Shown one piece after another: positions 31,700-35,319 of a stretch of 64,000 nucleotides of DNA (position 1 is its first letter; each line of letters begins with the position of its first letter). The notes beneath the pieces are model-generated. The model saw nothing but the letters and a program-made list of their open reading frames with translations, was not told the origin of the DNA and made no database searches. The stretch covers positions 50,160 through 114,159 of IMG/VR virus record IMGVR_UViG_2718218304_000001, one strand, 5' to 3'. Source of the DNA: a virus (lineage: Duplodnaviria; Heunggongvirae; Uroviricota; Caudoviricetes). Made by a program: the position numbers and the translations under genes.

Positions 31700-31883
31700 G
31701 TGTTTTTACCTTTATGGTTTTTTTGATTTTGTCATTGGGGAAGCCTACGAACTTCCCATACATCGAAATCGCAACTTCTTTTGCTGATTGGTGACAATCG
31801 GGCTTGTCTGGACATACCAGACAAGCCTTACCAGTTTCAGAAGCCGCGATAAGAGAGCCGAAACATCCTTTACGCACGATCAA
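31674..31883 (-). CDS. small Cys-rich hypothetical protein
   Basis: 69-aa ORF overlapping the dnaE start by ~26 nt; may be spurious. Confidence 0.3.
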   Translation of the reverse strand: MIVRKGCFGSLIAASETGKACLVCPDKPDCHQSAKEVAISMYGKFVGFPNDKIKKTIKVKTHESTDGSN

Positions 31884-33115
31884 CCAAATATTTTTTGAAC
31901 AACTTCACGAGCCGCTTGTGCAGAAGCTGAAGGGAGTTTGTTAATGAAAGAACGCTCAATACCTGTCACAAAGTCGCCTCGCATCATTCCAATCTTGGCC
32001 GACAACAAAAGTTCACGAGGGCCAATTGGCTGACTGATAAGGTGTTCTTCGTATCCATCGCGAACGATACCGGCAAACTTAACCATCTTTTCTGCGTATT
32101 CATCCACGATGCCGGCATTTATCAACATGTTGATCTCTGCCTCTTTGCTCATGTATTTCACATTCGAAACGATGCCAAAACGCGAAAAGTTCGCGGCGTT
32201 CTGGATGTTTGTACCCTGGTACAAGCCGGTTTCATCACCAGATCCGTTCGTGTTGCCAGTGCCAATGAAAGCAAACCGGTCATGCGGAGTAATGCGACGC
32301 CATTCTGGAGTCGCCTCTTTGATGACCAACGCTTCACCTTCCAGCACTGGCTGATACACGCCAAGAATCTGTGGAAACGCAAAGTCGTATTCATCCGCGA
32401 GGTAAACCCAGCCATGCTTCATTGCGAGCGCAAGCAAGCCAGGCTCGAAATACGTAGAGCCATCACGCGCCAGAATTTGCCCCGTAACATGTGCCTCTTC
32501 CATTGATGCTGTATGTTGGGCACGGATCAACGGACGATTGAGCAAAGCACATAGCTGTGTAGGCAATGTCGATTTGCCTGTTCCTGCATGACCCCACAAA
32601 TAGCCAGGTATGCCAAGTTCAAGCATCATGAAAATATCTTTGATCAGTTCGAAGTCGCCATATACGTAGCCCTTCTTCACTTCTGGAACGAACTCTGGAT
32701 ACGGCGTATTGACGTTGACGCTAACCATGAGCGGCGTCCCACGTTTTGTTCCGAGTTCTTCCACCGTTACGTTTAGCAGTTCGTGAGCTGCGACCAGATC
32801 TGTCTTGTACTCAACTGTGCCTGTGTAGCCAGGGCTACTGGTCAAGCCAGAAGATTTGGCCATTTCGCTTTTTTGCTCGGCACGTTTAGCTTGAATTGCA
32901 TCAAGTGCCTTTTTCGATAGCGTTGGTTCATCTGGAAACTGCGTTGTGTACATTTTCAGTACGGTGTCAGGATCGGCATCTTTTACTGACTCAGGAATGC
33001 CCTCGCAATTACCATTGGCTACATGGGACTTAAAATAGTGAAATGATTTGCCGCACCACTTGCAAACAAGGTAATCAGAATGATTTTTTTCATTTTGCAG
33101 TGCAGTAGTCGTCAT
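31880..33115 (-). CDS. AAA+ ATPase (MoxR/CobS-like)
   Basis: Walker A GHAGTGKST, Walker B VYLADEYDF; N-terminal CxxC...C zinc-ribbon-like motif; followed by a vWA protein. Confidence 0.7.
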   Translation of the reverse strand: MTTTALQNEKNHSDYLVCKWCGKSFHYFKSHVANGNCEGIPESVKDADPDTVLKMYTTQFPDEPTLSKKALDAIQAKRAEQKSEMAKSSGLTSSPGYTGTVEYKTDLVAAHELLNVTVEELGTKRGTPLMVSVNVNTPYPEFVPEVKKGYVYGDFELIKDIFMMLELGIPGYLWGHAGTGKSTLPTQLCALLNRPLIRAQHTASMEEAHVTGQILARDGSTYFEPGLLALAMKHGWVYLADEYDFAFPQILGVYQPVLEGEALVIKEATPEWRRITPHDRFAFIGTGNTNGSGDETGLYQGTNIQNAANFSRFGIVSNVKYMSKEAEINMLINAGIVDEYAEKMVKFAGIVRDGYEEHLISQPIGPRELLLSAKIGMMRGDFVTGIERSFINKLPSASAQAAREVVQKIFG

Positions 33116-33210
33116 GCGTTTTTCCTTTGTTCTCTAATGAGCGTTCAACTTCTTATATAAATATACCATTAACTATCGTAAGTAGTTACTTATCATCAAG
33201 GCTGTTTTAT

Positions 33211-35319
33211 TCACTTCAAAATGATACGAGATAGTTCAGTAACTACAGATGAACCAAGACTATCAACGCTCGTTACCAGGGCATGATTTGAGTAAAATCT
33301 CTCCGGTGCGTCAGTCATGATGCCAATTGCCATCAAATCAATGTCAGTCTGCGTTTCAATTTGCTTCGCAACCGAACGCAAATGAGCGTCAAAACCTCTC
33401 CCAACAGCCCACGGCTCGCCATCGCTCAGAACAAGCATGATCTTCCTGTCCTCCATGCGACCGGAAAATAACGATGCAAGGCTGGCTATGCTTTCACCAT
33501 CCACGTTATTAAGAAGTGGGAATGTGTAGCCTACGCACCCCATACGTGAGCGAACTTCGCGAGAATTTACCTTTTCATTCCAATTTTTGATGATAGGTAG
33601 CATTAAAGATTCAAAGCGAGAGAACTCATACTTGACAGCCTTAAGTTCTCCTGCCGCCATATGACTACCAAATGTAGTGAAGCCGGTGATAATGTTGGGA
33701 ACATTTATTCGATCAAGGGCATCGGCGATGGTATATGCACTTGCAAGAGCCAATTGTATCGTTATACCCCTCATTGAACCTGATAAATCAATCACTTGTT
33801 GAACACAGGCGTTAACGGCTTTAGATTCTTCTTTTTTACGAAACACGCGATCATCATTCATTGCTAATCTGTAGATACTAGAACCATGAATGCGCCCCCG
33901 ACGCTGGCCCGGTATAAACTGAACTCTGTTTCTGCTTGCTATTGCTCGCTCCAGGTCTTTTGCCAGCGTCGACGAAACACCTGACGAAAGATGCTTTTCA
34001 ATATATTTGTCGAAGAGCTGGTTGCCTTCAGGAACGATGCGATAGCGGCTGATTGGACATCCTCCTAAATCAATATCGGAGAATGTTTTAATAAGCCGTT
34101 TGATATGGGCTTCTGCCTGATCAATCGAGCCGATGAAGTCGTATGAGCGATTGTATGGCCTGTATTCGCTTTTCGAGCTTTCTGTTAACTCGCTTTTAAT
34201 CGTTTCGGATAGAGCATCTTCTGTCATGCCTCCGACTTCATCTTCTATGCTATCCAGCTCCTCTAAAGCCTCTTCCAGACTCATTTTTGACGGAGTTGGG
34301 ATATCTGAAGAGCCGTCTTCTGTCGTTTTTCTTTTTTCGTGGTCAGCGGTAAATGATTCTGACACCGCGTTATCAGAAGCATCAGAATCTGATACCTCTT
34401 TATCATTTTCTGTATCATCGAATATTGTTTCTGATGATTCAGAATTATCTGAATCATCATCGTCGTTATTATCATGTTTGTGCTTACTGTGTGATTCTGA
34501 TTTGATAGATTTGTGATTATCTAACGCTGAGGGTGTCTCATGATCTTCGTTGTCTTCATTGTTTTCTCCAGAGGCATCCGTCTGGTCAGCGTCTGAAGGA
34601 TCGGAAGTTTTTCCCGGAGCTGACTCCTTACCTTTGCTTTCACTTTCACTGTCTTTGAGGATCTTAGCTATGATCGCAGCCACCTTTACACAATCCTCGG
34701 TGCAAGACATGTTACGCACGGCCACATCGATACCATGTTCTTTTAATAATGAAATTGGTTTCTCAATGACAGGCCAATATTCATCCATGAAATCTACGAA
34801 CGGTGCTTGGCCATCCCAGGCTCTTACAACCGGACAGAGAAAGAAGTTTAGAAAAAGCGCGCGCTGATCTTTGCCACAATAAGCAATAGCCTCTGAAGCC
34901 TTTGGTTTAAAGACTTTTTCGATTATAAGGCGCTGAGTTGCCATCAGATTACGTCTTGTTCCGTTAAAGACCTGACCCATTTTTCGCTCGATGAACACGT
35001 CTTCTAAGGCATTCCATAGCGACCAGGAAGGAACGCGTCCTTTTTCTCTCATTTTGTTGGACACACGAATATCGGTAAACAAAATGTGAGCAACCTCATG
35101 ATCGAGAAATCCGCGCACAGCATTCATCAATGCCGGTGTTGCGTTATCCGGGATTGATGGGATGTTTACGAGAATTGGCTCTCCATCATCGTTATAGCGT
35201 ACATAAGCGTCGTCCCCTCGTTCTGCAACAGGGATGTTTTTACCTGAAAGGAGAGCGACTACTCGTTTTACACTGTCACGGAAGTCCTGAACCTCTTTGA
35301 TGGAACGTTTTTTAGACAT
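33211..35319 (-). CDS. von Willebrand factor A domain protein (CobT-like) with acidic low-complexity linker
   Basis: C-terminal MIDAS-like motif VIDLSGSMRG; central D/E/S-rich tract; partner of the AAA+ ATPase. Confidence 0.6.
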   Translation of the reverse strand: MSKKRSIKEVQDFRDSVKRVVALLSGKNIPVAERGDDAYVRYNDDGEPILVNIPSIPDNATPALMNAVRGFLDHEVAHILFTDIRVSNKMREKGRVPSWSLWNALEDVFIERKMGQVFNGTRRNLMATQRLIIEKVFKPKASEAIAYCGKDQRALFLNFFLCPVVRAWDGQAPFVDFMDEYWPVIEKPISLLKEHGIDVAVRNMSCTEDCVKVAAIIAKILKDSESESKGKESAPGKTSDPSDADQTDASGENNEDNEDHETPSALDNHKSIKSESHSKHKHDNNDDDDSDNSESSETIFDDTENDKEVSDSDASDNAVSESFTADHEKRKTTEDGSSDIPTPSKMSLEEALEELDSIEDEVGGMTEDALSETIKSELTESSKSEYRPYNRSYDFIGSIDQAEAHIKRLIKTFSDIDLGGCPISRYRIVPEGNQLFDKYIEKHLSSGVSSTLAKDLERAIASRNRVQFIPGQRRGRIHGSSIYRLAMNDDRVFRKKEESKAVNACVQQVIDLSGSMRGITIQLALASAYTIADALDRINVPNIITGFTTFGSHMAAGELKAVKYEFSRFESLMLPIIKNWNEKVNSREVRSRMGCVGYTFPLLNNVDGESIASLASLFSGRMEDRKIMLVLSDGEPWAVGRGFDAHLRSVAKQIETQTDIDLMAIGIMTDAPERFYSNHALVTSVDSLGSSVVTELSRIILK

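Follow-up and report, generated by a model that had tools for sequence, protein, structure and literature searches.

The closest described relatives of the gene pair considered here are CobS and CobT, the motor subunits of the cobaltochelatase CobNST. This motor belongs to the aerobic enzyme of Brucella, Pseudomonas and Sinorhizobium, and its assembly with CobN has lately been solved by cryo-EM (PDB 9ujv, 9uka; bioRxiv 10.64898/2026.07.21.739949). Canonical CobT carries an N-terminal domain described as M48C-peptidase-like (CobT_N), a disordered linker of about 90 amino acids (aa) and a vWA domain with its MIDAS, and its 'shaft' segment enters the pore of the CobS ring (bioRxiv 10.64898/2026.07.21.739949). 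For pairs of this kind in phages only two proposals, both bioinformatic, were found in the literature: the viral cobST cluster was interpreted as cobalamin auxiliary metabolic genes (Liu et al. 2021, PMC8651126), and an assembly role was proposed for the jumbo-phage pairs on the model of the Acidianus two-tailed virus, whose tails need a MoxR-vWA pair to develop (Iyer et al. 2021, PMC7824862). The pair described in this work lies in a stretch of 64,000 nucleotides (positions 50,160 to 114,159 of IMG/VR record IMGVR_UViG_2718218304_000001; this whole stretch is called the window), which belongs to an SSU5/pHCM2-type phage-plasmid of Escherichia coli. Its sequence indicates that phage-type pairs form a separate variant of the CobST motor: the vWA partner has an active-looking zincin site, the ATPase bears a zinc finger, a four-cysteine (Cys4) protein is encoded nearby, and CobN is missing. 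The genes are common and already deposited, and both the viral cobST cluster and the jumbo-phage metallopeptidase-vWA/MoxR pair have been noted previously; mention of zincin retention relative to canonical CobT, of the Ros/MucR-type finger or of the Cys4 neighbour was not found in the literature searched.

A first-pass annotation of the window had described a MoxR/CobS-like AAA+ ATPase beside a vWA/MIDAS protein and had remarked that such pairs recur in phages without a settled function, which agrees with the literature cited above. Both open reading frames (ORFs) were confirmed on the minus strand at exactly the coordinates given there, with their catalytic and MIDAS residues intact. The two genes comprise the following features:

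31880..33115, minus strand: CobS-like MoxR-class AAA+ ATPase, 411 aa (Pfam AAA_5, phrog_249, PDB 9ujv, invariant catalytic residues)
32816..33115, minus strand: N-terminal extension of the ATPase, aa 1-100 (ROS_MUCR matches of homologues; finger profile match)
33005-33064, minus strand: zinc-finger core, aa 18-37, part of this extension
33211..35319, minus strand: CobT-like protein, 702 aa, with zincin-like N-domain, acidic disordered linker, shaft-like segment and vWA/MIDAS (Pfam CobT, CobT_C; phrog_1576)
33211..33813, minus strand: vWA domain with MIDAS (D511, S513, S515, N605/D607, D633; invariant alignment columns)
33814..33936, minus strand: shaft-aligned segment, aa 462-502, aligning with the canonical CobT region that precedes the MIDAS (G475 and F493 invariant)
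34165..34662, minus strand: acidic low-complexity linker, aa 220-385 (166 aa, 50% D/E/S, net charge -37)
34663..35319, minus strand: N-domain, aa 1-219, predicted M48-like zincin fold of a helix, a three-stranded sheet and a helical bundle
34987..35004, minus strand: EDVFIE, aa 106-111, candidate 'glutamate helix' for the third zinc ligand (on helix 99-117 of the model)
35086..35100, minus strand: HEVAH, aa 74-78, zincin HExxH motif (translation checked)

The domain search that the first-pass annotation had recommended (AAA_5, VWA and CobT) returned Pfam AAA_5 at 2e-15 for the 411-aa protein, and CobT at 3e-27 and CobT_C/VWA at 4e-82 for the 702-aa protein. Among PHROG profiles, phrog_249 matches the CobS-like protein at 7.8e-106 (aa 11-410) and phrog_1576 the CobT-like protein at 9.6e-300 (aa 5-702). 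At least 1432 CobS-like homologues were found, and the CobT-like homologues amount to 5042 representatives of 50%-identity clusters. Because of these PHROG E-values and numbers of homologues, neither is a chance ORF. In the PDB, 9ujv (CobS) matches aa 142-411 of the CobS-like protein at 4.6e-26, with CbbQ/NirQ/NorQ and midasin also among the matches, and 9uka_G (CobT) matches the CobT-like protein at 6e-17. The AAA_5-type ATPase gene adjoins the vWA/MIDAS gene on the same strand with 95 nt between them, the arrangement of a MoxR/vWA pair. The PADLOC models gave no defence-system match for the pair other than a 14-bit DrmE match inside the low-complexity linker, and a defence-system identity was therefore dropped.

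Departures from the canonical cobaltochelatase motor

Judged from sequence, the pair is homologous but not orthologous to CobS and CobT. It scored 87.2 bits against TIGR01650 (CobS equivalog, cut-off 558.55) and 75.5 bits against TIGR01651 (CobT equivalog, cut-off 759.05), and orthology is set aside because these values lie far under the cut-offs, both of which were passed by the control pair from S. meliloti (CobS 651 bits, CobT 1166 bits). Identity is about 30% to canonical CobS and about 19% to canonical CobT. In the ATPase, Walker A (G175-K181), Walker B (D241-E242), sensor-1 (N288), the Arg finger (R312) and sensor-2 (R367) are invariant in an alignment with two canonical CobS proteins, and all catalytic residues of the solved Brucella CobS are kept. 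The MIDAS residues are likewise invariant across phage-type and canonical CobT (D422, S424, S426, N518 and D546 in Brucella). In the crystal structure, salt bridges join CobT_N to CobS (R76 and D80; E308, Q311 and R312; bioRxiv 10.64898/2026.07.21.739949); the counterparts of these residues here are R69 and D73 of the CobT-like protein and E404, Q407 and K408 of the CobS-like protein.

The CobT architecture (CobT_N, disordered acidic linker and vWA/MIDAS) is present. That of CobS, a protein of about 330 aa with no N-terminal domain and with a C-terminal helix alpha10 packing on CobT_N, was not found: the window protein has a 100-aa N-terminal extension absent from canonical CobS, and it ends ...QKIFG, 13-16 residues short of the canonical C-terminus and without helix alpha10. 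The gene order is cobT then cobS, whereas the canonical order is cobS then cobT. An acidic tract of about 150 aa rich in D, E and S had been singled out earlier; it is real and measures 166 aa, but it is no peculiarity of this protein. A long acidic linker was found in canonical CobT and in all of 146 diverse relatives (full-length representatives of 50% clusters, 30-58% identity), and on the basis of these alignments it is a trait of the whole CobT family. Diverse relatives for the analysis as a whole came from the representative search, INPHARED and contig look-ups, whereas scans of viral contigs gave mostly near-identical ones. Linker length varies among relatives while the flanking domains are of fixed length, and in the 146 the median D/E count of the most acidic 100-aa segment is 46. 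At the DNA level the linker has no tandem repeat beyond a trivial 9-nt array of 2.6 copies.

No candidate of CobN size was found in the 64-kb window, in which the only ORFs longer than 830 aa are DnaE and 59743-63990; the counterpart of the latter in Escherichia phage Cyrano is annotated as a tail fibre, and the window ORF was not itself searched. ORFs of at least 450 aa are DnaE, the CobT-like protein and five others, none of which is annotated as a chelatase in the Cyrano stretch examined; these five were not individually searched. To our knowledge, Enterobacterales use no CobN-type chelatase. E. coli is without the aerobic B12 pathway, a point taken from established knowledge and the work cited next rather than from a scan of the host genome. 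Synthesis of B12 in E. coli needs heterologous cobN, cobS and cobT plus about 28 further genes (PMC6249242). A CobNST assignment would call for a CobN of about 1,200-1,400 aa in element or host together with the substrate hydrogenobyrinic acid a,c-diamide, and this combination was not found. On the missing CobN, the missing host pathway and the low equivalog scores, cobalamin metabolism is an unlikely role here, as the first-pass annotation had also judged.

The most informative feature, which that annotation missed, is the intact HExxH zincin motif in the vWA partner. HE[VI][AG]H was found in 142 of the 146 relatives and ED..[IV]E in 140, and the zincin motif is present in the CobT-like protein of V. 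cholerae podophage ICP2 too. Canonical CobT reads D-S-M-A-L or D-A-A-A-L at the HExxH position, the motif having been lost; E106 and E111 are invariant, canonical CobT included. Residues 72-128 are also matched by the profile phrog_459 ('peptidase') at 2e-7. The N-domain was modelled with AlphaFold (aa 1-225) with high confidence (predicted local distance difference test, pLDDT, 90); the model has the topology published for CobT_N, and its best structural matches are M48/M56 gluzincins (Ste24, BepA, HtpX-like, BlaR1) and minigluzincins. Nothing significant was returned by Foldseek for the N-domain model against the PDB, the CobT_N crystal structures apparently lying outside that library, and a phmmer search of the N-domain against the PDB gave only HLA and SOD matches, which were judged spurious. 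In sequence the N-domain keeps a complete gluzincin site, with predicted peptidase activity.

The 'N-terminal Cys cluster' reported on the ATPase does contain cysteines, but just three of them, which together with one histidine make up what is, by homology, a diverged Ros/MucR-type zinc finger (C18-x2-C21-x9-H31-x5-C37). The classical fourth His is N36 in the window protein, with the adjacent C37 as a possible substitute. The pattern CxxC...H...H with Ros spacing (C-x2-C-x9-H-x4-H) occurs in 96 of 120 homologues. N-termini of homologues gave scores of 34.2 (2.9e-8), 29.9 (6.3e-7) and 25.2 bits (1.8e-5) against Pfam ROS_MUCR (PF05443, gathering cut-off 25.4), the first two above the cut-off; a precomputed ROS_MUCR match is also present in one related locus. 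The window N-terminus has no Pfam ROS_MUCR match of its own at the gathering score of 25.4 bits. Against a profile built from 60 classical-finger homologues it scored 65 bits, compared with at most 4.3 bits for shuffles, and by this similarity it is clearly homologous to the fingers of its relatives. The model of the finger is weak (pLDDT 63) and adds no support for a Ros-like fold, and Foldseek found no significant match for it in the PDB.

Element, operon and conserved neighbourhood

A 4.1-kb stretch is 99.0% identical at the DNA level to phage Cyrano (OV696614, locus L001) and 99.0-99.4% identical to the best-matching E. coli plasmids, with at least 99% in 15 records and 95-99% in 177. The viral cobST cluster DNA of the window is 97-99% identical to deposited phage-plasmids. 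Weaker matches were found in 768 plasmids, nearly all from Enterobacterales genera (Klebsiella, Escherichia, Enterobacter, Yersinia, Salmonella and others). Positions 20281-23720 of Cyrano correspond to window positions 31880-35319, and the genes are annotated there as 'cobalamin synthetase' and 'dimethylbenzimidazole phosphoribosyltransferase'. This is a misannotation by name clash, CobS and CobT in Salmonella nomenclature being unrelated enzymes; these names and the 'porphyrin/cobalamin biosynthesis' labels are unreliable.

When PLSDB was searched by tblastn with the vWA domain of Brucella CobT, 147 Acinetobacter and 11 Aeromonas plasmids were found to encode CobT-like vWA proteins, which suggests that further phage-plasmid groups carry the pair. 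In Xanthomonas phage JGB6 (L136, OQ436456), a tblastn match to the vWA domain at 7001-7866 lies under short coding sequences annotated 'DNA polymerase III subunit alpha' and 'PHP domain protein'. Genes are fragmented throughout this record, in which frameshifts in the assembly and names taken over from elsewhere are the probable cause.

On the minus strand the genes run orf70, cobT-like, cobS-like, orf69 and dnaE, and the placement between dnaE and the recombinase/tRNA region described in the first-pass annotation was borne out. The neighbouring features are:

28193..31699, minus strand: DnaE-type DNA polymerase III alpha (Pfam PHP, DNA_pol3_alpha, DNA_pol3_finger, HHH_6)
31674..31883, minus strand: orf69, Cys4 protein of 69 aa, C-x13-C-x2-C-x5-C (phrog_6337, 2e-44)
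35418..35630, minus strand: orf70, small ORF just upstream of the cobT-like gene and first gene of the operon (phrog_2627, 1e-39)
35882..36268, plus strand: divergent 128-aa protein ('putative repressor' with helix-turn-helix (HTH) DNA-binding domain in the Cyrano annotation)
36263-37366: tyrosine integrase
38391-39044, minus strand: four tRNAs (Ser-TGA, Thr-TGT, Tyr-GTA, Asn-GTT)

A GGA-containing ribosome-binding site precedes both the cobT-like and the cobS-like gene. The orf69 start lies within a few bases of the cobS-like stop (translational coupling), and orf69 overlaps the dnaE start by 26 nt. No minus-strand terminator-like site was found between 35630 and 28193, and counts of internal promoters and terminators in the operon were at or under shuffle expectation. 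The pair opens a probable early operon, which leads away from the immunity region towards the genes for the Cys4 protein and DnaE. The divergent 128-aa protein has no Pfam match of its own; in related prophages HTH regulators and an integrase occupy its position. Cyrano is annotated with three tRNAs (Ser, Thr, Asn) at the same place, so that even near-identical elements differ in their tRNA cluster. A CspA-type cold-shock gene (27671-27889, plus strand; Pfam CSD, 1.5e-33) follows downstream of dnaE in the window, on the other strand, where Cyrano has HicA/HicB.

A recurrent layout was observed in related genomes: regulators, small ORF, cobT, cobS, (sigma-70-like gene), Cys4, dnaE, gp32 single-stranded DNA-binding protein and exonuclease. 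It occurs in SSU5-type elements, a Xenorhabdus-type element (39% identity), nickie of Pseudomonas, a Rhizobium phage, three integrated prophages of betaproteobacteria and three metagenomic lineages, and the cobT-cobS-...-dnaE arrangement is kept in about ten lineages. Because most of these seem to belong to one large phage clade, the synteny is only moderate evidence for functional coupling. In ICP2, which has a family-A polymerase, the pair is located just upstream of primase, helicase and PolA. By gene neighbourhood the pair would belong to the early/replication module. The first-pass annotation had suggested a replication or chaperone role; the link to dnaE stands, while the replication part of that suggestion derives from gene neighbourhood only, apparently within one clade.

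The most constant neighbour of the pair is the Cys4 protein. All lineages examined have, between the cobS-like gene and dnaE, a gene whose product begins with [PG]-x-C-[FH]-[GA]-x13-C-x2-C-x5-C, orf69 being a short form (69 aa) of proteins that measure 176-237 aa in other lineages (coordinates in related loci: L134, 10445-10987; L135, 11451-11981; L138, 13060-13746; L139, 13169-13846; L141, 13037-13750; L142, 4242-4796; L143, 5580-6146; L144, 6980-7255). No Pfam family was matched by this protein, which matches phrog_6337 and the N-terminus of phrog_3616; its cysteine spacing is reminiscent of Fe-S or zinc sites, those of WhiB type among them. In ICP2 the pair occurs but the Cys4 protein does not. 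Many relatives have a sigma-70 region-2-like gene between the cobS-like and Cys4 genes (L135, 10819-11454; L138, 12323-13057; L139, 12423-13169; L141, 12370-13026; L142, 3640-4245; L143, 4822-5583; L051, 11466-12149), an arrangement resembling a sigma/anti-sigma pair. It was rejected as a universal partner, since neither the window nor the nickie locus examined has one.

An ORF of 61-76 aa lies directly upstream of the cobT-like gene in all lineages examined, including L045, L134, L135, L138, L139, L141, L143 and L144. These ORFs share just a faint C-terminal pattern (hydrophobic-x-[NA]-T-[GDNS]), and homology is detectable only among the enterobacterial elements (phrog_2627), so that the small ORF was not retained as a conserved third component. 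In several relatives (L139, 13881-17339; L141, 14033-17401; L142, 4789-8133; L143, 6397-9786) DnaE has a C-terminal domain of the uracil-DNA glycosylase (UDG) superfamily after HHH_6. The last approximately 215 aa of the window DnaE have no Pfam match, and the UDG domain may be diverged or different there. In the betaproteobacterial prophage L138 (13984-18555), an HNH_3 homing-endonuclease-like gene splits dnaE into a part with PHP, pol3_alpha and finger domains and a part with HHH_6 and UDG.

Proposed function and its alternatives

We hold with moderate confidence that the pair is a phage-type CobS/CobT motor module, ATP-driven and possibly DNA-tethered, that remodels or cleaves a protein client in early or replication functions and has no part in cobalt chelation. 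If the solved CobST is taken as the guide, the CobS-like protein would form an ATP-hydrolysing hexameric ring, on which the CobT-like protein would dock through its N-domain while threading its shaft-like segment (aa ~462-502) into the pore. The acidic disordered linker would tether the N-domain and the vWA domain, which together may act as a clamp that grips, via the MIDAS, another client at the place where the chelatase holds CobN. Because the phage type keeps the zincin catalytic residues (H74-E75-x-x-H78 with E106/E111), the client would probably be cleaved, or at least gripped at the zinc site, during pulling; and because the motor carries a Ros/MucR-type finger that may position it on DNA, the machine may work there. 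Its action would most likely be early, in the processing or removal of a DNA-associated protein on which replication of the phage-plasmid or its early gene expression depends. The client could be the Cys4 protein, DnaE, the neighbouring putative repressor or a nucleoid protein of the host.

A bolder proposal, which we consider rather unlikely, is that the pair is a DNA-tethered, AAA+-driven metalloprotease, a viral counterpart of the eukaryotic Cdc48/p97-Wss1/SPRTN system, which would cut or strip a protein bound to DNA, such as a repressor, a nucleoid silencer or a block to replication, and in this way set off replication or early transcription. CobT would then be its pseudo-protease descendant, whose former cleft now holds CobN.

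Several points weigh against a remodelling or cleaving motor. Conservation of HExxH is not proof of catalysis, and the peptidase activity is a prediction from sequence. The finger of the window protein is diverged, with its fourth His replaced, no Pfam match of its own, a pLDDT of 63 and no significant Foldseek match; fingers of the Ros/MucR type could instead mediate protein contacts, and the ICP2 ATPase has none. The synteny with dnaE may be simple inheritance within one large clade of genomes of about 105-115 kb. Some hosts of related phages (Rhizobium, Pseudomonas) have CobN, and for the relatives in such hosts a chelatase-related role may still apply. No experiment on any phage cobST pair was found in the literature.

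Of the other explanations, insertion of a metal cofactor, as performed by NorQ/NorD, CoxD/CoxE and CobST, is plausible since characterised relatives of this AAA+ clade act in that way (PMC7159879), and CbbQ/NirQ/NorQ are among the PDB matches; we nevertheless regard it as doubtful. The motor would open a phage metalloprotein to receive its metal, with HExxH as a metal-handling site and not a protease, and candidate clients would be the adjacent Cys4 protein, with its Fe-S- or Zn-like motif, or the PHP domain of DnaE. The constancy and translational coupling of the Cys4 gene fit this idea, as does the suggestion of a metal-related role for the MIDAS of CobSTN, which adjoins the CobN contact (bioRxiv 10.64898/2026.07.21.739949). 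The Cys4 protein belongs to no recognised family, however, so that its metal centre is a guess, and ICP2 does without it; moreover, nothing links HExxH zincin sites to metal delivery, and the strictly conserved catalytic Glu (E75) fits hydrolysis better. A virion-assembly chaperone, folding or assembling structural proteins that the metallopeptidase domain would process, appears improbable. In general, MoxR-vWA pairs act as chaperones in the maturation of protein complexes (PMC7159879), and the MoxR ATPase with metallopeptidase-vWA noted in group 2.2 jumbo phages was interpreted in this sense (PMC7824862). In all lineages examined, however, the pair stands in the early/replication block by the immunity region, with dnaE, gp32 and an exonuclease gene downstream, and structural genes are distant; Cyrano has its genes for lysis and tail fibres at least about 15 kb away, past ligase, primase, helicase and partition genes. 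A finger of the Ros/MucR type on the ATPase is also easier to reconcile with a DNA-linked role than with the assembly of capsids or tails.

The published reading as auxiliary metabolic genes (PMC8651126) is, in our estimate, very improbable for this pair. Viral CobS and CobT would replace or supplement the host motor and drive host CobN, yielding more cobalamin, for example for B12-dependent ribonucleotide reduction. Homology to CobS/CobT is clear over the ATPase, linker, shaft and vWA parts, databases label the genes porphyrin/cobalamin biosynthesis, and the aerobic pathway exists in some relatives' hosts (Rhizobium, Pseudomonas). The hosts of this element and of nearly all 768 related plasmids are nonetheless Enterobacterales, E. 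coli makes no corrin ring, and the pair also occurs in the V. cholerae phage ICP2. No CobN is encoded in the window, and the scores are 7- to 10-fold under equivalog cut-offs that a true pair passes. The phage type retains a peptidase motif lost in true CobT, has gained a zinc finger and lacks the alpha10 helix that contacts CobT_N, and its genes stand in an early/replication operon and not among metabolic genes.

Virome studies routinely count viral cobS/cobT among the auxiliary metabolic genes for cobalamin. A cobaltochelatase motor is of no use to the hosts of this element, and where the proteins differ from true CobST, the differences speak for remodelling or proteolysis of proteins at or close to DNA. 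If the remodelling or protease reading is true, the annotation of a widespread phage gene pair has to be revised, a new phage machine that acts early would have been found, and the comparison suggests that the chelatase adaptor CobT evolved from an active zincin. If the DNA-tethered metalloprotease proposal holds, virome surveys would have misassigned many viral genes as 'cobalamin auxiliary metabolic genes'. SSU5/pHCM2/pMT1-like phage-plasmids are clinically common in Enterobacterales, so that the genetics are accessible.

Comparison with known systems

The window pair is a member of the viral cobST cluster (PHROG 249 and 1576; SSU5, pHCM2-like plasmids, nickie, RHEph10, ICP2), with adjacent genes and full-length matches to both profiles; there is no structural difference from that cluster, and the disagreement concerns its treatment in the literature as cobalamin auxiliary metabolic genes (PMC8651126). 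The pair from jumbo phages of group 2.2 (PMC7824862) likewise combines a MoxR-class ATPase with a vWA co-chaperone fused to an N-terminal metallopeptidase domain. An assembly role was proposed there, whereas the context here is early/replication, and the two are likened by domain logic.

With M48 gluzincins the N-domain shares a helix bearing HExxH and, some 28 residues further on, a second helix with a conserved Glu (H74-E75-V-A-H78, E106/E111). The finger has the C-x2-C-x9-H(-x4-H) spacing of the Ros/MucR C2H2 finger (PF05443), followed by a Y...[FW]P...P.LS segment; in the phage type it is an N-terminal appendage on an AAA+ ATPase and not a transcription regulator, and its DNA binding is only predicted. 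The combination of an acidic linker with a MIDAS-bearing vWA domain is also known from ChlD and Rea1. Midasin/Rea1 and Mg-chelatase ChlI-ChlD belong to the same AAA+ clade and use this combination to grip a client while the ring works; they differ in their partners and clients and have no peptidase-like domain. Canonical CobST shares with the phage type the AAA+ catalytic residues, the partner built of N-domain, acidic linker, shaft and vWA-MIDAS, the Pfam families CobT and CobT_C and the salt-bridge residues. The phage type differs from it in keeping HExxH, in its 100-aa zinc-finger extension, in having neither alpha10 nor a CobN partner, and in a reversed gene order within a phage early/replication operon.

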